DNA of 64,000 nt from Planctomycetota bacterium (GTDB lineage Bacteria > Planctomycetota > UBA8108 > UBA1146 > JAJFFE01). Positions 20,464 to 42,441 of this stretch are shown here, piece after piece (the stretch's first letter is position 1; every line of letters starts with the position of its first letter). The notes below the pieces were generated by a model, which was given only the letters and a program-made list of their open reading frames with translations, was not told where the DNA came from and ran no database searches. The DNA is taken from the NCBI GenBank assembly GCA_039028735.1, contig JBCCHQ010000016.1:1758-65757 (forward strand), read 5' to 3'. The position numbers were made by a program, and so were the translations under genes.

Positions 20464-20574
20464 CTAGACTCCCCTCTCACGAGGGGCAGCCTATCAGATC
20501 AGGTAGTCCGTGCGGAGACGATCTGCGCAGGACAGGTGACAGCGCGCCGTCCTGGAAGCGCTGCCAAGGTGGGA

Positions 20575-27116: not shown

Positions 27117-28256
27117 CTACTGGCCGCGGGGCGCAAACGGTGCAAGATCCCACGCACAGTCACCGGTAAGAATCAGCTCAGACACCACCGCGGCAGTGAT
27201 CGGCGTCAACGCAACGCCGATCTTGTAGTGACCGACCGCAGCGAACAACCCATCGACGCCGGGCACGCAGCCAAGATAAGGGCGCAGATCCACAGACGAC
27301 GGACGCAACCCAGACCGGTGCTCGACGACTTGCGACGCCTGCAGCTCCGGGAGCAAGTCCACCGCACCGGCGAAGAGAAGCTCGCGTGCGGCCGGCGTCG
27401 GAGTGCGGTCGAAACCCGCTTCATGCTCGGTCGTCGCGCCAACGACAACCGTGTTCTGGTCGCGGCGCAGCACGTAGATCGCCCCGCAACGGATCAATCG
27501 ATCGCTGACGGGTTGCTGGACACGCAGCGTCAACGACTGCCCGCGAGCAGGCTCGGTCAACGTAGCATCCTGCACCGTACGAAGCTGCGCTGCATGCGCG
27601 CCGGCCGTCAGAAGCACCTGCTTGCACTCGATCGTTGCTGCGTCGTTGGCCAAGCGGACCCCGGTCACGCGAGCACCTGTCCCGCGATCGCCGGCGGTCA
27701 CGACATCTTCCACCTCGGCGTGTTCACGAATCTGCACCCCGCTCCGTTCACAGGCAGCGCGCAGCGCAGCGACCAGTCCGTCGACGTGCACCTGTGCCGT
27801 GATCCGGCAGTGAATCGCCCCATGCTCTGCAGGGCGTAGGCCGGGCTCGAGCTGCGCCACTTCGGCCGCGGTGATCACTTCTTGCGGCGCACAACCATCG
27901 ATCGCGTTCCACTGCTGCGCGCTGAGGCGCACCTCGTGGTGAGCGTTCTCGCGACGGCCAGCGCTGCGCAGTAACTCCAACCGTCCACGCCGCTCGTACA
28001 GCGGCTGCGTCGCAAACTGCGCGAGCTCTGCGCAGAAGTTGGGATAGAGAAGCAAAGATTCGCGCTGCAGTGCAGTCAGTGCATTCTGCCGCGTACTGAC
28101 CGAAGGGACCAACGCGCCCAGGGCGGCATACGACGCGCCGCTACCGCAACGGTCGGCTTCCAAAAGCGTAACTGCCCGTCCACCTTGAGCGAGACGCCAA
28201 GCAGTCGCGAGCCCCATCACGCCACCGCCAATGACGACAATATCCGGGGTCACTGG
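27117..28256 (-). CDS. FAD-dependent oxidoreductase (glycine oxidase ThiO / D-amino-acid oxidase family)
   Basis: DIVVIGGGVMGLATAWRLAQGG Rossmann FAD motif. DAO-family length. Start uncertain (GTG near 28256 or TTG/ATG at 28298). Confidence 0.7.
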   Translation of the reverse strand, partial: PVTPDIVVIGGGVMGLATAWRLAQGGRAVTLLEADRCGSGASYAALGALVPSVSTRQNALTALQRESLLLYPNFCAELAQFATQPLYERRGRLELLRSAGRRENAHHEVRLSAQQWNAIDGCAPQEVITAAEVAQLEPGLRPAEHGAIHCRITAQVHVDGLVAALRAACERSGVQIREHAEVEDVVTAGDRGTGARVTGVRLANDAATIECKQVLLTAGAHAAQLRTVQDATLTEPARGQSLTLRVQQPVSDRLIRCGAIYVLRRDQNTVVVGATTEHEAGFDRTPTPAARELLFAGAVDLLPELQASQVVEHRSGLRPSSVDLRPYLGCVPGVDGLFAAVGHYKIGVALTPITAAVVSELILTGDCAWDLAPFAPRGQ

Positions 28257-29344
28257 ACGGGGTCGACTTGCGGATTCGCCTGAGTGACGTCGTCCCATTC
28301 CAACGCGGCGCCGGCGGCGATGTCGCGCGCGGCACGACGGCCGACCACGCGATCCAGTGCCTCTGCGCCGATGCCCACCTGCGGACGGCGTGCCGACAAA
28401 TGCTCGCGAACGATCACGGACCCGGCTGCGATCGCGACCTTGGCCGTCAGACTCTTACGCACTTTCGGGATCGTCGGGACCTCTACTGCAGTGGGTTCCT
28501 TCTCTGCTCGCCCAACGGCTTCCGGTAGCTGTCGCAAAGCAGTCACCAGTTCTCCCAGTGCAGTAGGCTCCAACGAGGCGGCGTGGTCGGGCCCCTCGGC
28601 TTCGCGATCGTAGGTGAAGTGCTTCTCGATCACGACCGCGCCCAGCGCAGCTGCCATCACCGAAACCCAGATACCCGGAGTGTGGTCGGAGTAGCCAACA
28701 GGGCGGTCGAGGGCCGCGGCCAGAGTGGCAAGCACCGCAAGGTTCGCGTCCGGGACCGGACACGGATAGGCAGTCGTACAATGCATGACGACGATGTCGC
28801 GCGCGCCTGCGCCTTCGAGCCAACCCACGGCGCGCTGCACTTCAGGCAAGGTTCCCATCCCTGTTGCAAGAAGCACCGGCAGCCCGGTTGCCGCCACTCG
28901 CTCGAGGAGCAAGGGGTTCGTCAGGTCCGCCGACCCAACCTTGAATGCTGGCACGAGCGGCGCCAAGACGTCGACCGCCTCGACGGTGTGAGGAGTCGAA
29001 AGAAAGAGTATGCCGCGTTCGTCGCATACGTCCTTGAGCACAGCGAACGCATCCTCTGCCAGCTCGAGTGCCGCCAACAGCTGTCGTTGCGTCGCTGCCG
29101 TCTTGCCGCGTTTTTGGTACTCGACCAGCGGCGCGGCGTCGGTAACGAGATCGTCGGTGCGAAACGTCTGGAACTTGACGGCGTCGGCGCCCGCAGCGAC
29201 CGCAATGTCGATCAGTCGCAGCGCCGTATCGAGATCTCCGTCATGGTTGACCCCAGCTTCAGCGATGACGAACGGACGCTCGCCGCTTTGAAGCAGCCGA
29301 ACACCGATCGCGACGGAGCGCTCGCGGCCTGACTTCTCGCTCAT
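28250..29344 (-). CDS. NeuB-family nonulosonic acid synthase (sialic/legionaminic/pseudaminic acid synthase-like) with SAF domain
   Basis: VIAEAGVNHDGDLDTALRLIDIAVAAGADAVKFQTF..., GYSDHT, and a C-terminal SAF (antifreeze-like) domain. Start at MSEKSG. Confidence 0.8.
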   Translation of the reverse strand: MSEKSGRERSVAIGVRLLQSGERPFVIAEAGVNHDGDLDTALRLIDIAVAAGADAVKFQTFRTDDLVTDAAPLVEYQKRGKTAATQRQLLAALELAEDAFAVLKDVCDERGILFLSTPHTVEAVDVLAPLVPAFKVGSADLTNPLLLERVAATGLPVLLATGMGTLPEVQRAVGWLEGAGARDIVVMHCTTAYPCPVPDANLAVLATLAAALDRPVGYSDHTPGIWVSVMAAALGAVVIEKHFTYDREAEGPDHAASLEPTALGELVTALRQLPEAVGRAEKEPTAVEVPTIPKVRKSLTAKVAIAAGSVIVREHLSARRPQVGIGAEALDRVVGRRAARDIAAGAALEWDDVTQANPQVDPVQ

Positions 29345-29406
29345 GGAATTCGCCTTCCGTTCCCTGGTCTGCAGGGTATCGCGTCCAGCAACTCGCGAGA
29401 AGGGCA

Positions 29407-29440
29407 CAAAAAAACCCGGGCGCCGCTGAGCGGCGTCCGG
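29407..29440 (-). terminator. Intrinsic terminator downstream of the Cys/Lys repeat-protein gene
   Basis: On the minus strand: hairpin cccggacgccgc-tcag-gcggcgcccggg followed by TTTTTTT (plus-strand aaaaaaacccgggcgccgctgagcggcgtccggg). Confidence 0.5.
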
Positions 29441-29462
29441 GTTTGCGTTTCGCTGGCAGCGC

Positions 29463-30440
29463 TTAGCTGGCCGGCTTGACCTCGACGGGCTTGGCGGTCT
29501 TCGCCGACTTGCCACAACCACCGCAGCAACCGTTGGCCTTCTCAGCCTTGGCAGCGACGGGCTTCATCTTGGTAGCGGTCATGAACTTCGCGAGCTTGTC
29601 CTTGCTCGACTTGCAGCCGTTCGCGGCGCACTTCTCGAGGTAGGCAACCTTCTTCGCGAGGTCCTTCGAGCACTCCGTGCCGAACTCCTTCTTCAGAGCC
29701 GTGAGCATCGCGCCGGACTTGGCGCAGCCACCATCGGAGCCCTTGCAGAGCTTCGCGACCATAGCGGAGACGCTGACCGGCTTGGCCGCGACGGCGGCCT
29801 TGTCCATGCCGAACTCTTTCGTCAGCTTGGCAAGCTTGTCCACACTCGACTTGCAGCCCTTGCCGGCACACTCTTCGAGGTAAGCAATCTTCTTCGACAT
29901 CCCAGCGATGTCCTTGGAGCACTCCGAGCCACAGGCCTTGCTGAGCGCGGCGAGCTTCTCTGCGGACTTGGCGCAGCCCTTCTCGGCACCACAGGCGAGC
30001 TTGGCGACCATTTCGCTGAGCTTCATCTCGTTGCATGCGACACCCTTGTCGCCACAGGCGCTGGCGCAGTCCTTCTTCGCAGCGGCGGCCTTGTCGCCAC
30101 AGGCGCTGGCGCAGTCCTTCTTCGCAGCAGCGGCCTTGTCGCCACATGCGCTGGCGCAGTCCTTCTTCGCAGCTACGGCCTTGTCGCCACAGGCGCTGGC
30201 GCAGTCCTTCTTCGCGGCAACGGCCTTGTCGCCACAGGCGCTGGCGCAGTCCTTCTTCGCAGCAACGGCCTTGTCGCCACAGGCAGTCGCGCAGTCTTTC
30301 TTCGCGACGGCCTTGTCACCGCAGGCGGTGGCACAGTCCTTCTTCGCGGCGGCAGCCTTGGCTTTCTCAGGACAACACTGAGCATCCACTCCGGCGGCAA
30401 CGCCGAAAACAAATAGACAGACGAAGAGTAGCTTCTTCAT
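29463..30440 (-). CDS. Secreted Cys/Lys/Ala-rich tandem-repeat protein (nine copies of KKDCA[ST]ACGDKA[VA]AA)
   Basis: Signal peptide MKKLLFVCLFVFGVAAGVDA. CCPEK, then 9 near-perfect 13-14-aa repeats. C-terminal half has 14 more Cys in CG/GC pairs (AKLACGAEKGCAKS, CAGKGCKSS, CAANGCKSS) and ends GCCGGCGKS. Confidence 0.75.
   Translation of the reverse strand: MKKLLFVCLFVFGVAAGVDAQCCPEKAKAAAAKKDCATACGDKAVAKKDCATACGDKAVAAKKDCASACGDKAVAAKKDCASACGDKAVAAKKDCASACGDKAAAAKKDCASACGDKAAAAKKDCASACGDKGVACNEMKLSEMVAKLACGAEKGCAKSAEKLAALSKACGSECSKDIAGMSKKIAYLEECAGKGCKSSVDKLAKLTKEFGMDKAAVAAKPVSVSAMVAKLCKGSDGGCAKSGAMLTALKKEFGTECSKDLAKKVAYLEKCAANGCKSSKDKLAKFMTATKMKPVAAKAEKANGCCGGCGKSAKTAKPVEVKPAS
30031..30360. 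repeat. Roughly 42-bp coding tandem repeat array (about 8-9 units) within the repeat-protein gene
   Basis: cttgtcgccacaggcgctggcgcagtccttcttcgcagc(a/g)gcggc reiterated head-to-tail with few substitutions. Confidence 0.8.
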
Positions 30441-30813
30441 GGGTCTCCTCTAGGAAAGGTTTCTAACCGCGACGGGTCGCTATCCAACGCTCCCGTAGGT
30501 ACGACGTCGGGCCCCGAAAAGTTGGCCCCGAAGTCAAAGTCTCTCAGAAAAAGTATCGGCCGGCGACGCGCTTCGTAACGATTTCGGCGCTACACCGCAG
30601 TTTGCTGTACCCGATTTCTGAATACAGCCCCCCATGGGCTGAATTCACAGTTTAACACTTAGCAGCGTCCATGCCAGAGGCTGCGGGATTCCTCGCGAAC
30701 CACCCGACCTCGCTGCCGGTCGAAAGCTAAGAGCCTACTTCCAAGGCACTTGGAACAGCCAGAGCTGCCCCTGACACCGATCGCGGGATCCTCCAACGCC
30801 AGTAGGAACGGGG

Positions 30814-31122
30814 CTACGGTCCAGCGGGTTCCCAGCGATAGTCCGAAAGGGGCAACCGGTTACCCCGAAAGCGGACCCCTTCCTGCTCCAGAAGAGCCTG
30901 TTGGCGCCCCGGAGACTCCTTTTCGTCGGTCGAGCATTTGCCTTGGGCGTTCACGACTCGGTGCCAGGGGACGTTACGCGGGGCAGTGTTGAGGGCCCAC
31001 CCAACGGCGAGCGGAGAAATCCGAGCCGCCATCGCCTGGGAAATCTGCCCATAGGTCATGACGCGCCCGGGCGGAATGCCGCGGACGAACTCGTAGACCT
31101 CTTCCCAGACCGGCCCACCCAT
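30814..31122 (-). CDS. Alkyltransferase-like protein (ATL; MGMT DNA-binding domain with Trp replacing the catalytic Cys)
   Basis: MGMT C-terminal-domain motifs (RVMTYGQISQAMA, NTAP.NVPWHRVVNAQG). PWHR in place of PCHR is the ATL hallmark. Confidence 0.7.
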   Translation of the reverse strand: MGGPVWEEVYEFVRGIPPGRVMTYGQISQAMAARISPLAVGWALNTAPRNVPWHRVVNAQGKCSTDEKESPGRQQALLEQEGVRFRGNRLPLSDYRWEPAGP

Positions 31123-31126
31123 CGCC

Positions 31127-32095
31127 CTACGTCCCCAGCACTTGCTGCACTACTGCGAGGATCTGATCGTGATAGCGACCATTGCTGGCGATCACGCCGC
31201 GATTCTCCTCCAGCTGCCGGCCGCGACCGAAGTCGAGTGGCAGGCCGCGGACGTCCGTGACCCGTCCTCCAGCCTCTTCCATGACAATGGCTCCGGCGGC
31301 GTGGTCCCAAATCTTCTCGCGGTAGTCGGCTCGCGTCGGCAAACGCAGGTAGATCTCTGCGTCTCCGCGCGCCAGCGCACCGTACTTGACCTGCGAGTCG
31401 AGCCGCACCGGCTCGTTGGCAATCCCCAACTTCCGAGCGATCTGCGCCGACGCGCTCTGATCGGAGTGCCCACTCTCGACCGATTCACAAAAGCGCGCCT
31501 GGGCGAGGTCGGCGACGGCACTGACCGAACACGTTGTCTCGGTCGTATCGGCGCCGAACAGGGACTGCGAAACGGTACCTTGCCCACGCTCGGCGACGAA
31601 CAGCACGCCGTCGCCGTCCGGGCCAGCGAGTTGCGGGCAGCCAAGCACACCTAGTTGGACTTGGCCATCCTCGATGAGCCCGAGCGCGATCGCGTACTGT
31701 TCCTTGCGCAAGAATCCCTTCGTGCCGTCGATCGGGTCCAACGTCCAGAACCGACCACTCGCGGCACTGCCACCCAAGTCGATCCATGCGAGTACCTCTG
31801 CGCTCGAGGCGCCCTCGCGAACCGTCGTCACTTGCGCAACAACCTTCTCCAACACCTCTGCTTCCTGGCGGAGCTCGCGCGCATCTTCTTCACCGACCAC
31901 AGGGATCTGCGCGGTCGCCGCCGCCAGCTGTGCGCAGACCACCGCTTGCGACGCATAGTCGGCTACCGTGACGGGGCTCCGATCCTTCTTCTCGAGAGTG
32001 TCGGGGTGCACCCAGTGCTGCTGGACGTTGCGACAAACCATCGCAGCGGCGCGGACCGCCGCAATCCCGGCCGCTCGTTCTTGCTGAAGCCCCAT
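31127..32095 (-). CDS. Inositol monophosphatase-family phosphatase, 3'(2'),5'-bisphosphate nucleotidase (HAL2/CysQ)-like
   Basis: WTLDPIDGTKGF and other IMPase metal-binding motifs. Five-nt gap to ATL. Confidence 0.7.
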   Translation of the reverse strand: MGLQQERAAGIAAVRAAAMVCRNVQQHWVHPDTLEKKDRSPVTVADYASQAVVCAQLAAATAQIPVVGEEDARELRQEAEVLEKVVAQVTTVREGASSAEVLAWIDLGGSAASGRFWTLDPIDGTKGFLRKEQYAIALGLIEDGQVQLGVLGCPQLAGPDGDGVLFVAERGQGTVSQSLFGADTTETTCSVSAVADLAQARFCESVESGHSDQSASAQIARKLGIANEPVRLDSQVKYGALARGDAEIYLRLPTRADYREKIWDHAAGAIVMEEAGGRVTDVRGLPLDFGRGRQLEENRGVIASNGRYHDQILAVVQQVLGT

Positions 32096-32290
32096 GCGTC
32101 ACCCTCCTTGGATTCTCTTTGTCCGCACACTTTCGTATGCGGCCTCTCCCCGTGAGCAGCTATCCTGCGTAGAATGCCGCGTCTGCAGCGGAGCACAACC
32201 CATCCCGACCAGAAGCTGACAACTCGTGAAATCACGACAAACGGCGAGATCCTGGCGAACCGACAACGGCGAACGGCGAAGACAAGCCCC

Positions 32291-33319
32291 GTGGTAGATG
32301 AAACAGCCAGCAACCCGCAGCGCGCGACAGTGGTGCTGGGTGCCAATTCGTTCTCGGGACAAGACTTCGTCGACCTGTTGATCACCACAACCAACGACCG
32401 GGTCTTCGGGATCAGCCGCTCGCAGCAGCGCGACGCAACGTTCTCGAGCTACCTCAGACACGACCCTGACGTTCTCGCCCAACGCTTCGAGTACCACGCG
32501 CTCGACATGAACCACGACATGCCGGCGATCCTGGCCCTGCTCGATCGCTGGCGGCCTCAGCGCATCATCAACTTCGCTGCGCAGAGCGAAGTGGCTCCGA
32601 GTTGGGATCACCCAGAACACTGGTACCAGACCAACACCGTGGCTCTGTCGCAGCTCGTCAACCACCTCCGCGACTGCGACTACCTGCAACGCTACGTGCA
32701 CATTTCGTCGCCAGAGGTCTATGGATCTTGCGTCGGCGAGGTGCTCGAAGATGCACCCGCCAACCCCAGCACACCGTACGCGGCTTCGAAGGCGGCCGCG
32801 GACATGTTGCTCGCGGTGTTTCGCAAGCAGTACGATTTCCCGCTGCTGACGATCCGCGCCACCAACGTCTACGGAGCCCGGCAGCAGCTGTTCAAGATCA
32901 TTCCGCGCACGGTGATCTATCGCCGCCTGGGCAGGAAGATCCCGCTCCACGGCGGTGGTCACGCCGTGAAGTCGTACATCCACATCCGAGACGTCTCCCG
33001 CGGCGAACTGGCCGTGCTCGACCACGGCACAGTCGGGGAGACCTACCACATCTCTCCCGATCAGGGTGTCGCGGTGCGCGATGTCGTCGGCACGATCTGC
33101 AGCACACTCGGCGAAACGCTCGCAGACGCGACGACCCGTGTCGGCGAGCGCCCTGGACAGGATGCCGCCTACGTCATCGATTCGACGAAGATCCGCGAGG
33201 AACTTGGCTGGCAGCCTACGATCCCACTCGCAACCGGGATCAGTGAAGTTGTCGCGTGGATCGACGAACGCTGGCGGTCGATTTCTGAATTGCCACACGA
33301 GTATCTGCACGTGCCCTAG
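32291..33319 (+). CDS. NDP-sugar 4,6-dehydratase/epimerase (extended SDR)
   Basis: VVLGANSFSGQDFV (GxxGxxG-like), YAASKAAAD (YxxxK). Start is an uncertain GTG. Confidence 0.65.
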   Translation: MVDETASNPQRATVVLGANSFSGQDFVDLLITTTNDRVFGISRSQQRDATFSSYLRHDPDVLAQRFEYHALDMNHDMPAILALLDRWRPQRIINFAAQSEVAPSWDHPEHWYQTNTVALSQLVNHLRDCDYLQRYVHISSPEVYGSCVGEVLEDAPANPSTPYAASKAAADMLLAVFRKQYDFPLLTIRATNVYGARQQLFKIIPRTVIYRRLGRKIPLHGGGHAVKSYIHIRDVSRGELAVLDHGTVGETYHISPDQGVAVRDVVGTICSTLGETLADATTRVGERPGQDAAYVIDSTKIREELGWQPTIPLATGISEVVAWIDERWRSISELPHEYLHVP

Positions 33320-33352
33320 CGCTCGGGCCCCGCGCCTGACACACGCCGGCTC

Positions 33353-35701
33353 TTGTCATCGCGCGCGAAATCGGTTCCCTTCAGTCACATGACTCGCGAC
33401 GACAAGCCAGACATCTCTGCGACCGAGACGGCTCTGGAGTCCGCGCTCGCAGACGGGCAACTCGAAGCTGCACAGCAGCTGCTCGCGGCCTACGGCGAAA
33501 CGCCCCCGGCAGCGCTCGCGCGGCCTGCGGCCCGGCTGTGGATGGAACGACAGCGCTGGCAGCGCGCCGCGCAGGCCTGGGCCGGTGTCACGTCAGCGAC
33601 AACAGAGGAACGCTGCAACGAACGCCTGTGCCGCAATCTCGCTGTGCTCGAAACCAACCACCCCACGATCGCTGGCGCCGTCGTCGCTGCCACGAACGAC
33701 GACCGCTTCACGCTACACACCAGCGACAGTGGCGCCCTGACGATTGCTTTCGAGCGTGCCGACGGTTCACAACTCCTTCTGTCGGCACAGGAGGATCCGA
33801 TCGCCGACGTGCGGCAGGTCGTCGCTGGCCTACAATCGCACCTTGACGAGTGCGCCACGCTGGCATTGTGCGGCATCGGCGACGGCTACCTGTTGGCAGA
33901 GCTTGCCCAGCAAGAGAGCCGCAGTGCCCTTGGGCTCGAATCGCAGATCTACGTGATCGTGCCCGATCCCGCGGCGCTACTGACGTGCCTCATGTTGCAC
34001 GACTATTCCGGTGACGACGGCCCGTTGTGCCAACCTCGGTTTCGCTGGTACGTCGGCGCCGATTGGCTGACGGCACTGCAAACGGACCTCGCCGCGGACC
34101 TGTATCTCCCGCTGCCGAAGGTGCAGGTTCAGCTGCCACCCCACGGCACGGATACGGCCAAGCAGCTCGAAGCGGCTACGGACAAACTGCAGCGCCGCGA
34201 TGATCGCTTTCGGCGACGGATCGACCAACACTACACCACCGTCGAACCAACGCAGCTGGCCGCGTTGCTGGGGGACGACCCGCCCCGGCGCCCGCGGATC
34301 GCTCTGGCAACGACCAGATTCACAACAGTGCTCCAGTACGCGACCCGCGACCTGGCCACGACGCTTGGCGGACTCGGCTGGGACGTGGAAATCATCATCG
34401 AACCAACCACCGAGCACCGCGTTACGAAGCCCGCAATTCGTGAAGTGTTGGCACGCTTTCGACCCGACTTCTTCCTGCAGATCGATCACTTGCGGCACGA
34501 GCACGGCGACCTGCTGCCGGCGGCTCTGCCGTTCATCTGCTGGGCGCAAGATCTGCTCCCCAACCTCCTCGACGCGAACGCGGCCGCGGCGACAGGTCCC
34601 TACGACTACGTGTTGACGTTCGACGTACCGCTGTTCGTCGACCAATACGGCTACCCGCAGGAACGCTGCATCGCGATGCCGTTCATGTTGGCGCTCCCCG
34701 CGAGAACGGGCCAGGGTACAGCGGCAGCGAGCCCGGCGACCCACGACCTCGTGTACGTTTCCAACATGTCCAGCACCCCAGAGCGCGCCTTTGAGTGGCA
34801 ACGCAATGGCGCGCCGGCCGCGCTGCGATCGTTGTTGGACGCGTGTTGGGAACAGCTCCGACAACAGTATGCCGGGGACTTCCCGGTCAGCCAAAGGGTC
34901 GTCGGACACGGCGGCATCACAGACTTGCTGAACGCAACCGCGACGCAGACGGGCGTGCACTTGCCCACTGCTACGGCGGCGCGGCTGGCGAGTCACATCT
35001 TGTTTCCCCTCAACAGCCTTCTCTTTCGCCAGGAGGGGCTGCGCTGGGTTGCAGCGGCCGCTTCCGAACTCGGCAGCGACCTCGCCGTGTACGGCAGAGG
35101 TTGGGAACTGCACCCGGACTTTGCGCCGTACGCGCGCGGCGTCGTCGAGCACGGGGCCGCCCTGCAGGAACTGACGCAGCGCAGCCGCATCAACTTGAAT
35201 CTCGAACCGTATCCGTGCGTGGCGCACCAGCGGCTGCTGGACGGCCTTGCCGCAGGTGGCTTCTTCCTGATCCGTGAGCACACGTCGAACCGAGTCCTGC
35301 AGCAGCTGGCGAATCTCCTCGACCAGTATGCAACCCCAGCGGTTCACGACCTGGCCAGCGCCCGCAGCCAATTGCCTGCAGCCCAGCAAGGTGCGCTCGA
35401 AGAACTCGTAACCCTGTGCTTGCCCCTGTGCTACGCAACTCCAGCAGATCCGGTGCGGTTGGTACGCTCCTATCAAGAAGCCAAAGTGCTGATTTCGCAG
35501 CAGACATCGCTCCCCTACCTCGACGCGGTTTCGTTCGCTTCTCCAGCGCAGTGCCGCGTCCGCATCGAGCATTTTCTCGGCGCCGCCAAGACCCGCCAAT
35601 CGATCGCGGCCGCGCAGTGGGACAACATTCGCGATCGGCTCTCGTTTCCGGTTGCCATGAAGCGGGTGATCGGCGAGATTCGGCGACATCTAGCGGGCTA
35701 G
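33353..35701 (+). CDS. Large (782 aa) putative glycosyltransferase, Maf (DUF115/MptE-like) and/or CgeB-like
   Basis: Soluble and large. C-terminal region RINLNLEPYPCVAHQRLLDGLAAGGFFLIREH resembles the CgeB/GT1-like C-terminal domain. Context with NeuB-like synthase. Weak, recall-based. Confidence 0.45.
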   Translation: MSSRAKSVPFSHMTRDDKPDISATETALESALADGQLEAAQQLLAAYGETPPAALARPAARLWMERQRWQRAAQAWAGVTSATTEERCNERLCRNLAVLETNHPTIAGAVVAATNDDRFTLHTSDSGALTIAFERADGSQLLLSAQEDPIADVRQVVAGLQSHLDECATLALCGIGDGYLLAELAQQESRSALGLESQIYVIVPDPAALLTCLMLHDYSGDDGPLCQPRFRWYVGADWLTALQTDLAADLYLPLPKVQVQLPPHGTDTAKQLEAATDKLQRRDDRFRRRIDQHYTTVEPTQLAALLGDDPPRRPRIALATTRFTTVLQYATRDLATTLGGLGWDVEIIIEPTTEHRVTKPAIREVLARFRPDFFLQIDHLRHEHGDLLPAALPFICWAQDLLPNLLDANAAAATGPYDYVLTFDVPLFVDQYGYPQERCIAMPFMLALPARTGQGTAAASPATHDLVYVSNMSSTPERAFEWQRNGAPAALRSLLDACWEQLRQQYAGDFPVSQRVVGHGGITDLLNATATQTGVHLPTATAARLASHILFPLNSLLFRQEGLRWVAAAASELGSDLAVYGRGWELHPDFAPYARGVVEHGAALQELTQRSRINLNLEPYPCVAHQRLLDGLAAGGFFLIREHTSNRVLQQLANLLDQYATPAVHDLASARSQLPAAQQGALEELVTLCLPLCYATPADPVRLVRSYQEAKVLISQQTSLPYLDAVSFASPAQCRVRIEHFLGAAKTRQSIAAAQWDNIRDRLSFPVAMKRVIGEIRRHLAG

Positions 35702-35783
35702 AGGGGATTCTGCGAGCCGGGCAGGGACTGCCGTGGCTGCGCTGCCGCCAGGTCGACGGCCACTGGGAACGGGGGGAGCTCCA

Positions 35784-36842
35784 ATGCCATCAGGCAACCG
35801 GCACCAAGACAAGGTCTGCTTGGTCACGGGCGGTGCGGGCTTCATTGGCAGCCACCTTGTCGACCGACTCATCGCTGCTGGGCATCGCGTCCGAGTCATC
35901 GACAACCTGGCATCTGGCAACCTCGACAATCTCGCGCCGCACAAGAACGATCCACGCCTACGCTTCGTCGAAGCCGACATCGCAACCACGTCGGAACTGA
36001 CGTCACTGGCGGCCGGCGTGCAGTGGTTCTTCCACCTCGCGGCGCTCGCCGACATTGTCCCATCGATCGAACAACCGCAGCGCTACCATCAGGCCAACGT
36101 CAACGGCACGATCGCCGCGCTGGAAGCCGCTCGAGCAAGTGGCGTCGAACGCTTCGTCTACGCTGCATCTTCATCGTGCTACGGCCTCCCCGACCAATAC
36201 CCGACCCCTGAGACCGCGCCGTGTCGGCCGATGTATCCGTACGCGCTGACGAAGATGATCGGGGAACAGTACGTACAACATTGGCAGCAGTGCTACGGGT
36301 TGCCGACCGCTTCGCTGCGGTTCTTCAACGTGTACGGTCCACGAGCACGTACCAACGGTACCTACGGCGCCGTCTTCGGTGTGTTCCTGGCGCAGAAGCT
36401 CGCCGGCAAAGCGTTCACGGTTGTTGGTGACGGCAAGCAGTCGCGCGACTTCACGTTCGTCACCGACATTGCATCGGCGCTGGTCGCTGCCGCTCGCCGC
36501 GCAGCTCCCGGCGCAATCTACAACGTCGGCTCGGGTGGCACGTACACGATTCAGCACCTCGTGGAGTTGCTGGGCGGGCCCGTCGAGTATGTCCCCGAGC
36601 GGCCCGGCGAACCTAGGTGCACGTTCGCCGACACGACCAAGATCACCGAAGAACTCGGATGGCAGCCACAAGTTTCTTTCGAAGACGGGGTCGCTGAGAT
36701 GCTGCGCTGCATCGAACAGTGGCGCGAAGCTCCCGTCTGGGACCGGTCTTCGATCGATGTCGCCACGCGCGACTGGTTCCGCTACCTCGGTCCCAAGAAC
36801 GAGACCAACGCCGCGATCGCCGGCGCGGGAGATCCTGCATGA
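35784..36842 (+). CDS. NAD-dependent epimerase/dehydratase (UDP-glucuronate decarboxylase / UDP-hexose 4-epimerase-like)
   Basis: GGGGGAG RBS. VCLVTGGAGFIGSHLVDRL, YAASSSCYG, YALTKMIGEQY (YxxxK). Confidence 0.75.
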   Translation: MPSGNRHQDKVCLVTGGAGFIGSHLVDRLIAAGHRVRVIDNLASGNLDNLAPHKNDPRLRFVEADIATTSELTSLAAGVQWFFHLAALADIVPSIEQPQRYHQANVNGTIAALEAARASGVERFVYAASSSCYGLPDQYPTPETAPCRPMYPYALTKMIGEQYVQHWQQCYGLPTASLRFFNVYGPRARTNGTYGAVFGVFLAQKLAGKAFTVVGDGKQSRDFTFVTDIASALVAAARRAAPGAIYNVGSGGTYTIQHLVELLGGPVEYVPERPGEPRCTFADTTKITEELGWQPQVSFEDGVAEMLRCIEQWREAPVWDRSSIDVATRDWFRYLGPKNETNAAIAGAGDPA

Positions 36843-38392
36843 CTCGTCCGTCCAATTCCAACTGGCAGCGCAGCGGGGACAAAGTCATCGCGCTGGAGGC
36901 CCTCGCGGACGTCACGGAGAACGCCCGTGCGTGCGGCCAGAAAATCGTGCACTGCCATGGGGTCTTCGACCTATTGCACGTTGGGCACCTCAGGCACCTC
37001 GAAGCAGCCCGCCGATTCGGAGACCTCCTGGTCGTCACCGTGACTCCCGATGCGTTCGTCAACAAGGGACCCGGCCGCCCTGCCTTCAGCGCCGAGTCCC
37101 GCGCCGAAGCACTGGCCGCTCTCGCCAGTGTCGACTTCGTCGCGATCAACCGCTGGCCCACCGCTGTCGAGACCATCGGCATGCTGCGCCCTCACGCTTA
37201 TGCGAAGGGGTCTGAGTACGCCGACAAGAACGCAGACCGCACTGGCGGCATCATCGACGAGGAAGCGGCACTGAGCGGGCATGGCGGCCGCCTGGTGTTC
37301 ACGGACGAAGCCACATACAGCTCGTCACACTTGCTCCAGCACCACACCGACATGTACTCACAAGAAGTGAGGACGTTTCTCGGCGACTTTCGGGAAGAGT
37401 ACCCTTCCGCGGAAGTGCTAGCCGCTGTCGACGCGGCGGCCTCGCGCCGAGTCCTGGTCATCGGTGAGACGATCATCGACGAGTATCAGTACTGCGATGC
37501 CATCGGCAAGAGTTCCAAGGAACCGACCCTGGCCGTGAAACCGTATTCGGTGGAACGCTTTGGCGGCGGCATCCTGGCTGTCGCGAACCACGTCGCGCCG
37601 TTCTGTGAGCAAGTTACCGCACTGACCGCTATCGGCAGCCAGGATGGGTCACGCGCGTTCGTGGAAGGAGCTCTGGCGGCCAGCGTACAGCCAAGGTTCA
37701 TCGAACTCGAGCACGCACCGACAATCACGAAACGACGTTTCATCGATCGCTACTTCTTCCACAAACTTTTCGAAGTCTACGAGATGGACGACAGTGAACT
37801 CACTGGGCCGGACGAGGCGGCGCTACTGGACGCTCTGGACGAAGCGCTGCCGCAGCACGACGTCGTCATCGTAGTCGACTATGGGCACGGCCTGCTGACG
37901 CCTCGCGTCGTCGACAAGCTGACCAAGCAGGCGCCCTTCTTGGCTGTCAACGCCCAGTCGAACGCCGGCAACCTGGGATACAACACGGTCTCGAAGTACC
38001 CCCGGGCGGACTACGTGACCCTTGCCGAGAACGAGCTCCGCCTGGACAGCCGCGACCGCCATGGGCCCCTGCCGCCACTCGCGCGACGGGTCTCTGAGCG
38101 CTGTGGTGCCCGCACCGTCGCGGTCACACGCGGCGCGCAGGGTTGCCTGTTGTTCGATCGCAGTGCCGGCTTCGTCGAAGTGCCGGCGCTGGCAGGCACG
38201 ATCAAAGATCGCATGGGAGCCGGCGATACATTCATGGCGATCACTGCCCTGACCGTCGCTGGGGAAGCCCCAGTTGCCGTCAGTGGGTTCTTGGGCAACG
38301 CCATGGCTGCAGGAACGGTGGCCACTGTCGGGCATCGTGGCTGTATCGACAAAGCGCCGTTCGTGCGACACGTCGAATGCCTATTGAAGTAG
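36839..38392 (+). CDS. Bifunctional sugar-phosphate nucleotidyltransferase (HIGH-motif, cytidylyltransferase-like) / PfkB-family sugar kinase; HldE-like with reversed domain order
   Basis: N-terminal CHGVFDLLHVGHLRHLEAAR (HxGH nucleotidyltransferase) and C-terminal PfkB kinase motifs (GAGDTF). ATGA overlap with the upstream epimerase. Confidence 0.75.
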   Translation: MTRPSNSNWQRSGDKVIALEALADVTENARACGQKIVHCHGVFDLLHVGHLRHLEAARRFGDLLVVTVTPDAFVNKGPGRPAFSAESRAEALAALASVDFVAINRWPTAVETIGMLRPHAYAKGSEYADKNADRTGGIIDEEAALSGHGGRLVFTDEATYSSSHLLQHHTDMYSQEVRTFLGDFREEYPSAEVLAAVDAAASRRVLVIGETIIDEYQYCDAIGKSSKEPTLAVKPYSVERFGGGILAVANHVAPFCEQVTALTAIGSQDGSRAFVEGALAASVQPRFIELEHAPTITKRRFIDRYFFHKLFEVYEMDDSELTGPDEAALLDALDEALPQHDVVIVVDYGHGLLTPRVVDKLTKQAPFLAVNAQSNAGNLGYNTVSKYPRADYVTLAENELRLDSRDRHGPLPPLARRVSERCGARTVAVTRGAQGCLLFDRSAGFVEVPALAGTIKDRMGAGDTFMAITALTVAGEAPVAVSGFLGNAMAAGTVATVGHRGCIDKAPFVRHVECLLK

Positions 38393-38453
38393 TGACAATG
38401 AGCCGCGAACTTGCTGTGTGCGACGAACAAGAGGGGTTGAGGGGAACGAACGC

Positions 38454-39188
38454 ATGACCGTACCGGGTAAGGACAGTGCTCGAGGAAATGGCACTGCGCG
38501 AGACGACACCGTGCCGGATCGAGCCAGCAGCTATTTTCGCGCACTTCACGAATTGCTGGGCCGAGCCGCTGCGACCGATGGCGACGGCGCCCCGATCGAC
38601 TTCGACGAGGGGGCACGCTCGGCAGTGCGGCGATTGTTGGCGGCTCGCGATGCCGGACACAAAGCCATGGTTATCGGGAACGGCGGTAGCGCCGCGATCG
38701 CAAGCCATCTCCAGAACGACCTCGGCAAGACTGTGGAACTGCGAGCGCTGGTCTTCAATGAACCGGCAACGCTGACTGCGCGCAGTAATGACGACGGCTA
38801 CGAACGCGCGTTCGAAGCGCAGCTGTGCCAATGGGCAGACCCTGGCGATGTCTTGATCGCAATCAGCAGCTCGGGTGCTTCTGAGAACATACTGCGCGCG
38901 GTACGAGCGGCCCGCGCCCGTTCGCTGTCGATCATCACGATGTCTGGGTTCGCAGCGGACAACCCTCTGCGCCAACTGGGTAACGTCAACTTCTACGTAC
39001 CGATCGATCATTACGGACATGTGGAGCTGGCGCACCAGATCCTGGCGCACTACTTGACCGACACTGCAGAGACACAGTTGAAGAGACAGGAGGCTCGGAG
39101 TGACGAACTCGCGGCGCATCTTGGTGACGGGGGGAGCTGGGTATGTGGGCGCCGTTCTCGTATCGAAACTCCTCGCAGCCGGACATAG
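38454..39188 (+). CDS. gmhA: SIS-domain sedoheptulose-7-phosphate isomerase (GmhA-like)
   Basis: MVIGNGGSAAIASHLQNDL and AISSSGASENILRAV SIS motifs. 3' end overlaps the next gene; the true stop may be earlier. Confidence 0.7.
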   Translation: MTVPGKDSARGNGTARDDTVPDRASSYFRALHELLGRAAATDGDGAPIDFDEGARSAVRRLLAARDAGHKAMVIGNGGSAAIASHLQNDLGKTVELRALVFNEPATLTARSNDDGYERAFEAQLCQWADPGDVLIAISSSGASENILRAVRAARARSLSIITMSGFAADNPLRQLGNVNFYVPIDHYGHVELAHQILAHYLTDTAETQLKRQEARSDELAAHLGDGGSWVCGRRSRIETPRSRT

Positions 39189-40137
39189 GGTCCGCGTACT
39201 CGACTGGTTTCTATACGGTGAAGAGGTCCTGAGCGCTCACGCCAGCAATAACAATCTAGAGCAACACAGCGGCGACATCCGCGACGAGAGCCTGGTGGCG
39301 TCGCTCGTGAGTGGCTGTGATGCCGTCATACACCTTGCCTGCATCTCGAATGATCCGAGCTTCGAATTGGATCCTGAGCTAGGTCGCTCGATCAACCTCG
39401 ACGCATTCGACCCGCTGGTGCGTGCCAGTCGCGACGCCGGGGTCGCTCGCTTCATCTACGCTTCCACGTCGAGCGTCTATGGACTCAGCGACGCGCCGGA
39501 CGTGACAGAAGATCACCCGCTGCGGCCACTCACAGACTACAGTCGCTTCAAGGCCCAGTGCGAAGAGCAGCTGCGCGAGTACGAGGCGCCTGACTTCACG
39601 ACCGTGACGCTGCGGCCAGCCACGGTTTGCGGCTACTCACCACGGCTGCGTCTCGACCTGACGGTCAATATCTTGACGAATCACGCCGTCAACAACGGCG
39701 TAATCAAGGTCTTCGGCGGCACCCAGAAACGGCCCAACATTCACATCGACGACGTGACGGACTTGTACGTACAGCTGCTCGACGAACCGCACGAGCGGGT
39801 GGCTGGTAAGACATTCAATGCGGGCTACGAAAATCACACAGTCGCGGAGATCGCGACCTTCGTGCGTGACGTCGTGCGGGCCGAGCTGCCAGAAAGAAAG
39901 CTGCTCGACATCGTCACGACGCCCAGCGACGACTTACGCTCGTATCACATTTCATCGCAGAAGATCGCGCGCGAGCTGGGTTATCGACCGCGTCGATCGA
40001 TCGAAGACGCGGTACGCGACCTCGTGCATGCTTTTGTGGCCGGCAAGATTCCAAACTCCATGACGGACATGAAGTACTTCAACGTCGAGATGATGAAGAA
40101 CCACCCAATCCCCGCCTACACCGAGAGCAGCAGATGA
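39100..40137 (+). CDS. NAD-dependent epimerase/dehydratase (extended SDR)
   Basis: GACAGGAGG RBS then GTG. ILVTGGAGYVGAVLVSKLL, YxxxK (YSRFKAQCE). Confidence 0.75.
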   Translation: MTNSRRILVTGGAGYVGAVLVSKLLAAGHRVRVLDWFLYGEEVLSAHASNNNLEQHSGDIRDESLVASLVSGCDAVIHLACISNDPSFELDPELGRSINLDAFDPLVRASRDAGVARFIYASTSSVYGLSDAPDVTEDHPLRPLTDYSRFKAQCEEQLREYEAPDFTTVTLRPATVCGYSPRLRLDLTVNILTNHAVNNGVIKVFGGTQKRPNIHIDDVTDLYVQLLDEPHERVAGKTFNAGYENHTVAEIATFVRDVVRAELPERKLLDIVTTPSDDLRSYHISSQKIARELGYRPRRSIEDAVRDLVHAFVAGKIPNSMTDMKYFNVEMMKNHPIPAYTESSR

Positions 40138-40958
40138 CGGCCGCTCGGGTCGACCTCGCTACTCTCGAGCAGTACAGTCGCGAGATCCGCGGCACAGTCG
40201 TGCAGATGTCGCATGCTTCCGGCGCGCCGCACCTGGGATCGAACCTGTCCTGTATCGACATCCTCGTCGCTGCCTACTGGGACGCTGTGCGGATCGATCC
40301 GTCGCAGCCGTCGGATCCGGGTCGCGATCGTTTCATTCTCAGCAAGGGGCATGCGGCTGCTGCTCTCTACGCAACGCTGGCGCTGCGCGGCTTCTTTCCG
40401 ATCGAACAGCTGCGACGTTTCAACGAAGTTGGCTATCACCTCCCCGAACAGCCCGCCCCCGACTGCGTGCCGGGCGTCGAACTGGCAACCGGGTCGCTGG
40501 GTCACGGACTCGGCGTCGCGGCCGGAATTGCGCTGGCAGCCAAAATCCAGCGCAAGGACTACCACACGTTCTGCCTGCTCAGCGACGGCGAATGCAACGA
40601 AGGTTCTGTCTGGGAAGCAGCGATGTTTGCCCCCGCACAGCATCTCGGGCAACTGACCGCGATCATCGACTACAACGGCTGGCAGGCGACCGGGCGCAGC
40701 GACGAGGTGCTGGCACTGGCTCCCCTTACTGACAAGTGGAGTGCGTTCGGCTGGGACACACGAGAGGTCGACGGCCACGATCTAGCAGCACTCCAGGACG
40801 CGATCCGGACAGACGACGCGAGGCAAACGCCACGGGCGATCATCGCGCATACGGTCAAGGGCAAGGGTGTGTCGTTCATGGAAGACGACAACAACTGGCA
40901 CTACCGTATTCCGACCGCCGATGAAGTCGCGGCTGCGCGCCGGGAGCTTCAGCTATGA
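40134..40958 (+). CDS. Transketolase, N-terminal subunit (split transketolase)
   Basis: TPP-binding region (HLGSNLSCIDILVAAYW, LSKGHAAAALYATLA, GSLGHGLGVAAGIA). ATGA overlap with the previous gene. Confidence 0.85.
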   Translation: MTAARVDLATLEQYSREIRGTVVQMSHASGAPHLGSNLSCIDILVAAYWDAVRIDPSQPSDPGRDRFILSKGHAAAALYATLALRGFFPIEQLRRFNEVGYHLPEQPAPDCVPGVELATGSLGHGLGVAAGIALAAKIQRKDYHTFCLLSDGECNEGSVWEAAMFAPAQHLGQLTAIIDYNGWQATGRSDEVLALAPLTDKWSAFGWDTREVDGHDLAALQDAIRTDDARQTPRAIIAHTVKGKGVSFMEDDNNWHYRIPTADEVAAARRELQL

Positions 40959-41884
40959 GGAACCGCTTCGCAGCGACGATCGAAGAGCTGGCTGCCGTAG
41001 ACGAACGCGTCGTCCTGCTATCGGGCGACATCGGCAATCGGCTGTTCAATCGCTTCAAGGAACGATTCCCCGATCGTTTCTACAACTGTGGGGTCGCCGA
41101 ACAGAACATGGTCAGCGTTGCCGCAGGCTTGGCACTCAGCGGCTTGCGCCCGGTGGCCTATACGATCGCCCCGTTCTTGACGACGCGAGCGTTGGAGCAG
41201 ATCAAGATCGACCTGTGCTACCACAATGCGCCCGTCGTACTGGTCGGTGTCGGCGCAGGCCTCAGCTACGCGAGCCTTGGGCCAACGCATCACACGCTCG
41301 ACGACATCGCGCAGCTACGATCGCTCCCAGGACTGACGATCATGGCTCCTGGAGATGCTCCCGAAGTGCAACTGGCTCTCGAAAGCGCGCTGTCGGTGGA
41401 CGGTCCGGTGTACCTTCGCATCGGCAAGAAGAACGAACCGGTGGTGCACGCAGAGGCTCCCCCCTTCAAGATCGGCGAGTCGATCCCGCTACGCGCCGGC
41501 AGCGCAGCCTGCCTATTGAGTACAGGAACGATTCTGCCCGAAGCGGTCGCTGCAGCCGAAGACCTCGCGCAGCAAGGGATCGAGGTCGCACTACACAGCG
41601 TGCCGACGGTGCAGCCCCTTGCGCAGGACTGGCTGGCCTCACTGGCCAAGCAGTTCGCGGTGATCGTAACGATCGAGGAGCACGCCCACGCTGGTGGCTT
41701 TGGCGCTGCTATCGCGGAGGCCATTGCCGACGCGGACCTCCCCGTGCACCTCGTTCGGATCGCCGCTCCGGACCAGTTTCATCACGACGGTGGCACGACG
41801 AAAGAGGCGCGACTGCGTTGCGGTCTGTCGGCATCTCAGATCGCCCATCGGGTCAAGGCCGCCTACGTGCAACGAGCGCATTAG
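40955..41884 (+). CDS. Transketolase, C-terminal subunit
   Basis: Pyrimidine-binding and C-terminal domains (FYNCGVAEQNMVSVAAGLAL, APFL). Overlapping start/stop with the N-terminal subunit gene. Confidence 0.85.
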   Translation: MRNRFAATIEELAAVDERVVLLSGDIGNRLFNRFKERFPDRFYNCGVAEQNMVSVAAGLALSGLRPVAYTIAPFLTTRALEQIKIDLCYHNAPVVLVGVGAGLSYASLGPTHHTLDDIAQLRSLPGLTIMAPGDAPEVQLALESALSVDGPVYLRIGKKNEPVVHAEAPPFKIGESIPLRAGSAACLLSTGTILPEAVAAAEDLAQQGIEVALHSVPTVQPLAQDWLASLAKQFAVIVTIEEHAHAGGFGAAIAEAIADADLPVHLVRIAAPDQFHHDGGTTKEARLRCGLSASQIAHRVKAAYVQRAH

Positions 41885-42022: not shown

Positions 42023-42430
42023 ATGCCCTTGGATCCTCCATCAACAAAGGCACCACCCGAGCGCCGACAGCACGGCATTTCGCTGATCGAGTGTCTCGCT
42101 TGCATCGCGATCCTCGGTACCGCTGTCGTGTCGGGACTGTCGCTAGCCAGCGTCCAGTCCCAAGTCGTCACCAGTGACGAACTGACCGTGCTCGCAAATC
42201 GGTATCTGAAGCGTGAGTTCGAACACTGTCAAGGCACGCACTACGCCGCGATAGACACGACGGCCGCAACGACTGTCGACGAAGACAGCCGCTTCGCCAT
42301 CAGCTACACCGTGACCGAGCGGTCATCGATGTACAAAGAAGTCACAATCTCCATTGCCTGGCTTTCTGAAAGCGGTGTGGCTCGGACTGAGTCACTGACC
42401 ACCCTCCGTTGCAAGAACACACTCGACTAG
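42023..42430 (+). CDS. Prepilin-type N-terminal domain protein (minor pseudopilin, GspI-like)
   Basis: G|ISLIECLACIAILGTAVV cleavage/methylation motif. Confidence 0.6.
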   Translation: MPLDPPSTKAPPERRQHGISLIECLACIAILGTAVVSGLSLASVQSQVVTSDELTVLANRYLKREFEHCQGTHYAAIDTTAATTVDEDSRFAISYTVTERSSMYKEVTISIAWLSESGVARTESLTTLRCKNTLD

Positions 42431-42441
42431 GCAGGCGCAGC

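Follow-up and report, generated by a model that had tools for sequence, protein, structure and literature searches.

The window considered here is a 64 kb stretch of DNA (63% G+C) from a metagenome-assembled genome of the Planctomycetota, and it carries a conserved cassette of 11-12 genes that is probably, judging from its enzyme families, a heptose-type nucleotide-sugar pathway. The cassette combines a nucleotidyltransferase (NTase)-kinase fusion, in which the two halves of HldE stand in reverse order, with an atypical transketolase (TK) module, and it is both widespread and uncharacterised. Its core consists of a short-chain dehydrogenase/reductase (SDR2), the reversed HldE-like fusion, a GmhA-like isomerase and a second SDR (SDR3). 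The window holds one copy, distributed over three blocks at 32.2-41.9 kb, 45.9-48.65 kb and 51.76-52.55 kb. With somewhat less than even confidence, we propose that the product of the cassette is a heptose-type sugar, activated with a nucleotide, tailored further and destined for a surface glycan. Genes were identified as six-frame open reading frames (ORFs) with a GC3 filter, supplemented by Pfam and NCBIfam scans. All 13 genes named in an earlier description of this DNA, made from the letters alone (the sequence-only reading), exist with the domain families it gave them. Several true starts, according to gene calls made on the identical Logan contig, lie downstream of the start of the longest ORF.

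The conservation survey was anchored on the fusion (36839-38392, plus strand). Among GTDB species, each represented in the scan by a single genome, at least 586 from at least ten phyla carry the fusion, with 52-57% identity across Planctomycetota, Acidobacteriota, Omnitrophota, Elusimicrobiota and Tectimicrobiota. The cassette is found mostly in the PVC (Planctomycetota-Verrucomicrobiota-Chlamydiota) group, Chloroflexota, Elusimicrobiota, Omnitrophota and Acidobacteriota rather than in Proteobacteria. Co-location was assessed in 83 loci from other species (80 with a flank of at most 10 kb and three from other look-ups) by tblastn of all window proteins between 19.8 and 55.6 kb and by all-versus-all clustering of the locus ORFs. 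The two methods give the same picture with slightly different counts, and single counts quoted here come mostly from clustering. SDR3 (39145-40137; this and the following genes are all on the plus strand) has an orthologue directly downstream of the fusion in 54 of the 83 loci, at a median identity of 61%. SDR2 (35784-36842), the first gene of the conserved core, is found upstream of the fusion in 26 loci (62%), and SDR1 (32174-33319) downstream of it in 26 (49%). The two subunits of a split TK, TK_N (40134-40958) and TK_C (40955-41884), occur in 45 and 43 loci (55% and 48%, respectively), and the isomerase, a SIS-domain protein (38454-39188), adjoins the fusion in 33 (43%). Further downstream in the window are a Zn-dependent medium-chain alcohol dehydrogenase (Zn-ADH; 45912-46952), present in 35 loci by clustering and 37 by tblastn (43%); a HAD-superfamily phosphatase/mutase-like protein (46955-47593), in 27 by clustering and up to 36 by the other count (45%); a kinase of the APH/choline-kinase fold (47590-48651), in 31 (31-32 across methods; 35%); and a class I S-adenosylmethionine (SAM)-dependent methyltransferase (51760-52548; Methyltransf_11/25), in 36 by clustering and 35 by tblastn (45%). 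Pfam-annotated neighbourhoods from Tectimicrobiota, Acidobacteriota, Elusimicrobiota and two further lineages agree independently with these counts. Because the plus-strand genes recur together in dozens of phylogenetically distant genomes, their co-location is far beyond chance.

The sequence-only reading had treated positions 27117 to 41884 as one functional island, a mixed locus in which a nonulosonic acid (NulO) made by NeuB and a nucleoside diphosphate (NDP)-heptose serve the same glycan and the split TK raises the supply of sedoheptulose-7-phosphate for GmhA. We consider this improbable. Co-location with the fusion recurs in distant genomes for the plus-strand genes but not for the five minus-strand genes: by tblastn, NeuB is near the fusion in 1 of the 83 loci, and the DAO, HAL2, ATL and Cys/Lys repeat proteins are near it in none. 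Synteny across both strands is limited to a close relative (L097) with a 78%-identical fusion, where the local order is as in the window, including ATL, HAL2, the pseudopilin genes and the 2-hydroxyacid dehydrogenase. The HAL2-ATL adjacency kept in this relative speaks for a single island, as does a NeuB-DAO contig from the same study that is syntenic with the left flank of the window; the shared order in L097, minus-strand genes included, is nevertheless ordinary short-range synteny. The NeuB-DAO pair and the Cys/Lys, ATL and HAL2 proteins are thus neighbours and not components of the cassette, and the boundaries of the unit shift accordingly, the conserved set reaching to 48651 and including the gene at 51760-52548. 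The compositional profile of the window has no island signature and a tRNA scan finds no tRNA border; therefore "island" can refer to gene content only. The plus-strand genes had also been described as mostly translationally coupled. There are 4-nt overlaps at three junctions (SDR2/fusion, SDR3/TK_N and TK_N/TK_C) and a longer overlap between the SIS gene and SDR3, and no others.

The NeuB protein (28250-29344, minus strand) is itself a genuine member of the NeuB/LegI family, about 50% identical to many of its members, which favours the mixed locus; the alternative of a KDO-8-phosphate synthase is not borne out. It has a PF03102 domain (E 1e-82) followed by a C-terminal SAF domain (PF08666, E 4e-10), and scores 377.1 bits against TIGR03569, just under the cut-off of 399.65, and 241 bits against TIGR03586 (PseI), with a cut-off of 340. 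The pairing of the two sugar types also has a parallel in the S-layer protein of Kuenenia, where NulO-containing glycans occur alongside oligo-heptose ones (bioRxiv 10.1101/2020.12.03.409086). Against the mixed locus, the missing NeuA that the sequence-only reading had remarked on extends to NeuC: tblastn finds no NeuA- or NeuC-like sequence in the 64 kb, and NeuB-NeuA and NeuB-Epimerase_2 fusion queries match through their NeuB part alone. The partner of NeuB in the window is not NeuC. Here and in a 68%-identical relative (P0122), NeuB is translationally coupled to a DAO/ThiO-like FAD oxidoreductase (27117-28298, minus strand; 207 bits, below the cut-off of 250.8), and in the planctomycete relatives P0123 and P0124 (55% identity) a NeuC-type 2-epimerase adjoins NeuB in the oxidase's place. 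The loci compared for this pair were 27117-29344 (minus strand) of the window, L090, L089 and L092. NeuB and the oxidase may form a two-gene module in which an aldehyde made by the oxidase is condensed with phosphoenolpyruvate. We also considered whether the window oxidase corresponds to a DAO-family gene inside the related cassette of locus L095 and rejected it, as the two can be aligned over the FAD motif alone and the gene in L095 encodes an L-2-hydroxyglutarate oxidase.

The fusion, which is identical to an NCBI protein from a Planctomycetota bacterium, consists of a CTP_transf_like domain (residues 40-127) and a PfkB domain (residues 204-504). Its kinase half scores 121 bits against TIGR02198 (rfaE_dom_I), versus at most 33 bits for other PfkB families, and its NTase half scores 93 bits against TIGR02199 (rfaE_dom_II), versus 35 for TagD. 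HldE domains I and II are therefore the best models for the two halves, and the riboflavin and glycerol-3-phosphate cytidylyltransferase families, which had been raised as alternatives, are rejected. The HldE profile matches the fusion with the halves swapped, the NTase being N-terminal and the kinase C-terminal, and NF008454 gives 164 bits against a cut-off of 521. Matches in the Protein Data Bank (PDB) are HldA (4e84), a heptose-7-phosphate kinase that is the best match for the kinase half, ECT (3elb) and 5x9q; among structures, too, the two halves score best with HldA and HldC. The catalytic motifs HxGH and GAGD are invariant in the fusion family. Heptose NTases carry a nucleotide- and sugar-phosphate-binding motif, (F/L)XXGXSTT (PMC11461863); in its place the window has FTDEATYSSS and the family consensus FTDDITFSSS, a stretch related to the motif without being it. 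On these comparisons the fusion is best placed in a family paralogous to HldE, not in HldE itself.

The GmhA-like protein (Pfam SIS_2/SIS) is a predicted ketose-phosphate isomerase. It scores 83 and 70 bits against two phosphoheptose isomerase models, whose cut-offs are 276 and 209, and, of the catalytic/metal and phosphate-binding residues of GmhA (E. coli numbering), keeps H61, S119, S121, S124 and H180 but not E65 and Q172, E65D and Q172E being found in 33 of 33 family members. Together with the kinase and NTase halves that are nearest to HldE domains I and II, these residues uphold the earlier proposal of a heptose-type nucleotide-sugar pathway on the plus strand. The claim that the heptose branch is complete fares less well. 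The interval contains no GmhB-type phosphatase, and the domain order of the fusion is the reverse of that in HldE. No GmhB-type HAD phosphatase is present anywhere in the window, where the sole HAD-like gene, the one at 46955-47593, has no NCBIfam match and a weak HAD match in Pfam. A canonical GmhB-like HAD protein of a separate family lies beside the SIS gene in 6 other loci.

Three extended SDRs accompany the fusion. SDR1 is RmlB/GMD-like, with the Pfam domains GDP_Man_Dehyd/Epimerase, and is a putative NDP-sugar 4,6-dehydratase. Its best PDB matches are dTDP-glucose 4,6-dehydratases, its score against TIGR01181 (202 bits) is below the cut-off of 365, and it keeps YxxxK and has SSPEVYG in place of TDEVYG. 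SDR2 is 4-epimerase-like: it scores 174 bits with GalE and 113 with heptose_epim, both below the cut-offs, and its best PDB matches are 4-epimerases of UDP-hexoses and UDP-HexNAc (7ys8, WbpP and WbgU). SDR3 carries the sequences STSSVYG and YSRFK and is a putative NDP-heptose C4-dehydrogenase. Its best PDB match is 6vo6 (E 4.8e-41), 40 bits ahead of the second-best (E 1e-28); we take 6vo6 to be Campylobacter jejuni Cj1427, a GDP-heptose C4-dehydrogenase. Cj1427 has a tightly bound NADH and reduces alpha-ketoglutarate to L-2-hydroxyglutarate. In assays with alpha-ketoglutarate as co-substrate, it oxidises GDP-heptose at C4 (PMC10680097). The window contains no L-2-hydroxyglutarate oxidase gene, and such genes are found in two related loci: in L095 (13182-14402; 529 bits) directly after the SDR3 homologue, and in L015 (14195-15358; 485 bits) flanked by the genes for E1-alpha and E1-beta, both well above the cut-off of 299. 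On the chemistry of Cj1427, an L-2-hydroxyglutarate oxidase would regenerate alpha-ketoglutarate and lend independent support to the assignment of SDR3.

The two TK genes directly follow SDR3, and TK_N overlaps both of its neighbours by 4 nt. TK_N, the PP-domain subunit, matches Transketolase_N and NF004559 (262 bits); TK_C holds the Pyr and C-terminal domains (Transket_pyr, Transketolase_C) and has as its best PDB match the C chain of the Carboxydothermus hydrogenoformans split TK, 6yaj (E 2e-48). The cassette TK, represented by 41 family members, was aligned to E. coli TktA with MAFFT, and residues are given in E. coli numbering. Those that bind thiamine diphosphate (ThDP) and Mg2+ or activate the cofactor (H26, H66, D155, N185, E411 and H473) are conserved in 40-41 of the 41 members. 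Among the residues that recognise the phosphate and 2-OH of the substrate (R358, S385, H461, D469 and R520), R358 is the sole one kept. The acceptor-site changes in TK_C are H461G (41 of 41), D469L/N, R520K (39 of 41) and S385R/G, and the window copy of TK_N has H100Q. H261 is left unaligned by MAFFT; by eye, NNWHY matches the SWHG motif that we take to be that of short-type (mammalian) transketolases, and H261 is not counted as lost. 6yaj keeps H461, D469 and R520 ('THAGLTVGEDGASHQ', 'LGRSG'), and the changes are therefore specific to the cassette family and not general to split transketolases.

The genomic company of the TK was examined in the 53 loci that have at least 8 kb downstream of the fusion. 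Split TK genes are present in 38 of these, genes for the alpha and beta subunits of a pyruvate-dehydrogenase-type E1 in 10, both in 3 and neither in 8; the TK and E1 genes use the same slot, usually directly after SDR3. The presence of TK is not linked to that of the SIS gene (17/38 TK loci versus 6/15 non-TK loci). It goes with the HAD-like gene (23/38 versus 0/15), the APH-like gene (28/38 versus 1/15) and the methyltransferase (29/38 versus 4/15). Zn-ADH is present in 27/38 versus 6/15. The step from transketolase to sedoheptulose-7-phosphate thus proves to be the weakest in the sequence-only reading. The intact ThDP and Mg ligands together with R358, and the RpiA gene about 7 kb away, speak for it. 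However, TK tracks the HAD and APH genes and not the SIS gene, an E1 enzyme can fill its slot, and H461 and D469 are lost even though a genuine split TK keeps both.

A simple supply role is disfavoured by the shared E1 slot, the lost acceptor residues, the lack of linkage to SIS and the precedent of Rif15. We infer instead that the split TK is a tailoring C2-transferase acting on the product of SDR3. The E1-like AviB1/B2 enzymes provide the two-carbon chain of eurekanate in avilamycin. ThDP-dependent two-carbon branching of 4-keto sugar nucleotides is described for YerE and for the avilamycin eurekanate genes (PMC4753412), and Rif15, a two-subunit TK encoded by overlapping genes, attacks the ketone carbon of a non-sugar acceptor (PMC6002545). 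A literature search for transketolase in heptose or cytidylyltransferase clusters, or in the formation of branched sugars, returned nothing relevant.

The linkage of TK with the HAD and APH genes also fits a scheme in which TK works before activation of the sugar. The APH-like kinase would phosphorylate an unusual aldose, TK would add two carbons, the SIS protein would isomerise the product, PfkB would phosphorylate C1, the HAD-like protein would remove the distal phosphate and the NTase would activate a non-standard NDP-heptose or NDP-octose. The GDP-octose route of lincomycin (LmbR/N/P/K/O) follows the same logic. We regard this scheme as unlikely, yet not negligible. Searches with 20 members of the HAD-like family give 10 Pfam matches at E<0.01 (5 to PF00702 and 5 to PF12710), and the motifs DFDNT, SHKT and FIDD are invariant, leaving DxDxT, S/T and DD intact; no PDB relative is found by sequence or by profile. 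The catalytic motifs of the APH-like family (Pfam APH) are also intact, with SPSDFGFHN in the catalytic loop and DFEYAGWDDP invariant; its profile matches only corramycin phosphotransferase and choline kinase in the PDB, weakly, and a single APH(6) model in NCBIfam (23.5 bits). The TK pocket with D469L and H461G would fit an aldose lacking the usual 2-OH or phosphate geometry, and the family-specific E65D and Q172E of the GmhA-like enzyme point in the same direction. On the other side, the SIS gene is no commoner in TK than in non-TK loci, TK sits after SDR3, where the E1 tailoring enzymes sit, and the core enzymes show the same degree of conservation where TK is missing, although a change of substrate should have altered them. 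The HAD-like gene is kept in TK loci that have a canonical GmhB-like gene (L017, L036, L046 and L075) and is absent from all TK-less loci, and so is not simply a substitute for GmhB, an option that we rejected.

A third scheme dispenses with the glycan altogether: an NDP-sugar would be modified, released by the HAD-like protein, re-phosphorylated by the APH-like kinase, and cut or rebuilt by TK into the precursor of a small molecule. The model for it is the entry of kanosamine and aminoDAHP into 3-amino-5-hydroxybenzoate, which uses RifL/K/M/N and a transketolase. The enzyme sets are similar (oxidoreductase, HAD, kinase and TK, with a DegT aminotransferase in 21 loci), and most loci have no recognisable glycosyltransferase within 10 kb. 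The recruitment of split transketolases to chemistry outside the pentose phosphate pathway reportedly extends to a sulfoquinovose pathway and to side-chain cleavage in C. scindens, and it is documented for Rif15 (PMC6002545). We nevertheless consider a small-molecule product very unlikely. DegT genes are found in just 11 of the 38 TK loci, and downstream synthase genes (DAHP-synthase-like, polyketide synthase or nonribosomal peptide synthetase) are seen in no locus. Moreover, glycosyltransferase-like genes lie inside the operon in Phycisphaerae-type loci, the window included, and L095 has GT2 and PMT_2 genes beside the core.

The glycosyltransferase-like gene in the window (33353-35701, plus strand) encodes a protein of 782 aa (770 aa in the NCBI annotation) with a helical N-terminus and a predicted GT-B domain. 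Its sole Pfam match, Glyco_trans_1_2, is weak. The family has 64 members among 5.8 billion proteins, all named hypothetical, and several share a contig with a homologue of the fusion. The gene is directly upstream of the fusion in four loci labelled Phycisphaeraceae (L007, L010, L026 and L028), and analogues are present in L094 and L097. The AF2 model of the protein has a pLDDT of 91.3, and its top Foldseek matches in the PDB are O-GlcNAc transferase (OGT) and SPINDLY (E 4e-6, probability 1.0, TM 0.25), with single-domain GT-B enzymes reaching a TMt of 0.53. From this model, the protein is a likely candidate for the transferase of the cassette's product, possibly acting on proteins.

From the gene content, domain families, active-site residues and conservation statistics observed here, we infer each chemical step, the nucleotide used, the acceptor of TK and the roles of the HAD- and APH-like proteins as follows. 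The SIS isomerase would convert sedoheptulose-7-phosphate, drawn from ordinary pentose-phosphate metabolism, into heptose-7-phosphate, and the PfkB half of the fusion would phosphorylate O1. The 7-phosphate would be removed by a GmhB encoded elsewhere or by the HAD-like protein, and the N-terminal NTase half would then form NDP-heptose. SDR3, as a Cj1427-type dehydrogenase, would oxidise C4 to a ketone, which would serve the split TK, with its altered acceptor pocket, as acceptor for a dihydroxyethyl unit, two carbons carried on ThDP; where E1 alpha/beta are found instead, they would act likewise with pyruvate. Zn-ADH (ADH_N, ADH_zinc_N; PDB matches to class III alcohol dehydrogenases at E 1e-40), SDR1, SDR2 and the methyltransferase would finish the sugar, which the OGT/SPINDLY-like GT-B protein would transfer, possibly to protein. 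In its most specific form, this pathway would give an undescribed higher sugar, the addition of the dihydroxyethyl unit to an NDP-4-keto-heptose yielding a C-branched or chain-extended nine-carbon product (an acetyl unit being added in the E1 loci) that is methylated and placed on surface proteins by the OGT-like transferase. The identity of the product in this form is speculative, and we would give it a rather low probability.

Several points weigh against a tailored NDP-heptose. None of the core enzymes reaches its NCBIfam equivalog cut-off, and the window has no GmhB. With FTDEATYSSS in place of (F/L)XXGXSTT, neither the sugar-1-phosphate nor the NTP used by the fusion can be predicted with certainty. 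The assignment of SDR3 presupposes that 6vo6 is Cj1427, the L-2-hydroxyglutarate oxidase context is limited to 2-3 loci, and the glycosyltransferase assignment of the 782-aa protein depends on a model with a low global TM-score of 0.25. To our knowledge, no transketolase acts on a nucleotide sugar. The retention of R358, together with R or K at positions 385 and 520, leaves room for a phosphorylated substrate, and the tight linkage of TK, APH and HAD looks more like chemistry at the level of sugar phosphates (kinase, TK, phosphatase) than like tailoring, a scheme that gives the HAD and APH proteins no clear job.

The minus strand of the region also encodes an alkyltransferase-like protein (ATL, 30814-31122) and a HAL2-type bisphosphate nucleotidase (31127-32095; 333 bits, above the cut-off of 267). 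The secreted Cys/Lys repeat protein (29463-30440, minus strand) has no family match, and its gene contains a tandem repeat of 45 bp in 6.8 copies at 30044-30347, each unit encoding 15 aa (KKDCAxACGDKAxAA-like). In the closest relative, contigs stop on both sides of the place where this gene would lie, as expected if the repeat breaks short-read assemblies. Three pseudopilin-like genes (42023-44693, plus strand), two of them with N-terminal methylation motifs, and a D-2-hydroxyacid dehydrogenase gene (44823-45800, minus strand) separate the TK genes from the Zn-ADH/HAD/APH block; this insertion is kept in L097 and is found in 0 of the 83 distant loci. Further to the right, 50837-55606 holds a GT2 gene (minus strand; MftF-like, 126 bits, below the cut-off), then the methyltransferase, an FAD/NAD(P) oxidoreductase, a radical SAM protein (Rv1681-like, score below the cut-off) and a metallophosphoesterase. 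Of these genes, the methyltransferase is the only one that accompanies the cassette in other genomes: the GT2 at 50.8 kb has just four short N-terminal matches among the 83 loci, and the genes at 52.6-55.6 kb have none. Left of NeuB, 18313-23911 contains RpiA, a B12-binding radical SAM protein and several hypothetical genes, and is syntenic with a close relative (L090); eight distant loci have homologues of the B12-radical SAM protein, of low identity, close to the cassette. Weak dockerin-type repeats, which are typical of planctomycete secreted proteins, are present in two proteins unrelated to the cassette (25663-26517, plus strand, and 49121-50566, minus strand). A consensus scan for promoters and terminators between 27 and 47 kb found sites no more often than in shuffled sequence and is uninformative for a GC-rich planctomycete.

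If the proposal is correct, one conserved gene set defines a modified heptose in at least 586 species, mostly of uncultured lineages whose envelopes have barely been studied. In its most specific form, the proposal would also mean that hundreds of mostly uncultured species (PVC bacteria, Chloroflexota, Elusimicrobiota, Omnitrophota and Acidobacteriota) have an unrecognised surface sugar in common. As compact markers of the gene set one could use the fusion, SDR3 and TK genes. Transketolase chemistry would extend to the carbonyls of nucleotide sugars, with the first transketolase acting on such a substrate, and the Cj1427-type strategy of oxidising without deoxygenating would reach well beyond Campylobacter. 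For annotation, the labels HldE, transketolase and NeuB in loci of this kind do not imply lipopolysaccharide-core heptose, pentose-phosphate flux or sialic-acid synthesis, and, as the case of NeuB shows, genes that are adjacent in a single genome need not belong to one pathway.

The known systems closest to the cassette include the ADP- and GDP-glycero-manno-heptose pathways (GmhA, HldE or HddA/HddC, GmhB and HldD) with the C. jejuni GDP-heptose tailoring enzymes, among them Cj1427 (PMC10680097). It shares with them a SIS isomerase, a PfkB-type anomeric kinase, an NTase of the cytidylyltransferase fold and extended SDRs; in two related loci the gene context would suit alpha-ketoglutarate/L-2-hydroxyglutarate recycling. 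The cassette differs by its reversed fusion, sub-equivalog scores, SSS in place of STT, the GmhA changes E65D and Q172E and the usual absence of GmhB, and it adds ThDP enzymes, a HAD protein and an APH kinase. The S-layer of the planctomycete Candidatus Kuenenia stuttgartiensis bears heptose chains and NulO-containing O-glycans (PMC5088730; bioRxiv 10.1101/2020.12.03.409086), and its genome carries a TK-type cassette (L042). The heptoses have been attributed to ADP-/GDP-heptose pathways with no mention of the cassette (same sources). The idea of heptose plus NulO is thus not foreign to the phylum, yet in this DNA no genomic link ties the NulO genes to the heptose genes. One O-glycan residue of this S-layer, of 174.09 Da, is a putative dimethyl-deoxyhexose (PMC5088730). 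By our own arithmetic its mass (C8H14O4) is isobaric with a methyl-dideoxyheptose, which is a purely speculative lead.

The 782-aa protein, as modelled, would share with the GT41 enzymes OGT and SPINDLY a GT-B catalytic domain that is preceded by helices; it differs in its global TM-score of 0.25, an identity of about 11% and an extra Rossmann-like domain at about residues 100-250. The C. hydrogenoformans enzyme (6yaj/6yak) has the same split architecture as the cassette TK, with H461, D469 and R520 in 6yaj against G, L/N and K in the cassette. Rif15a/Rif15b (PMC6002545) is alike in encoding the N and C halves in two overlapping genes and, on the proposed route, in the attack of ThDP-dihydroxyethyl on a ketone carbon; its acceptor is a naphthoquinone, its product an ester, and it has no HAD or APH partners. 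For YerE (yersiniose) and the eurekanate genes of avilamycin, the differences would lie in the substrates. The ThDP enzyme in the window is a predicted transketolase, whose donor would be a ketose or hydroxypyruvate and whose transferred unit would be dihydroxyethyl rather than acetyl or hydroxyethyl, with a heptose in place of a 6-deoxyhexose as the presumed acceptor. What the cassette shares with these two systems is a ThDP enzyme gene placed directly after that of the presumed 4-ketone-forming enzyme, and its E1 alpha/beta variant matches this logic closely.

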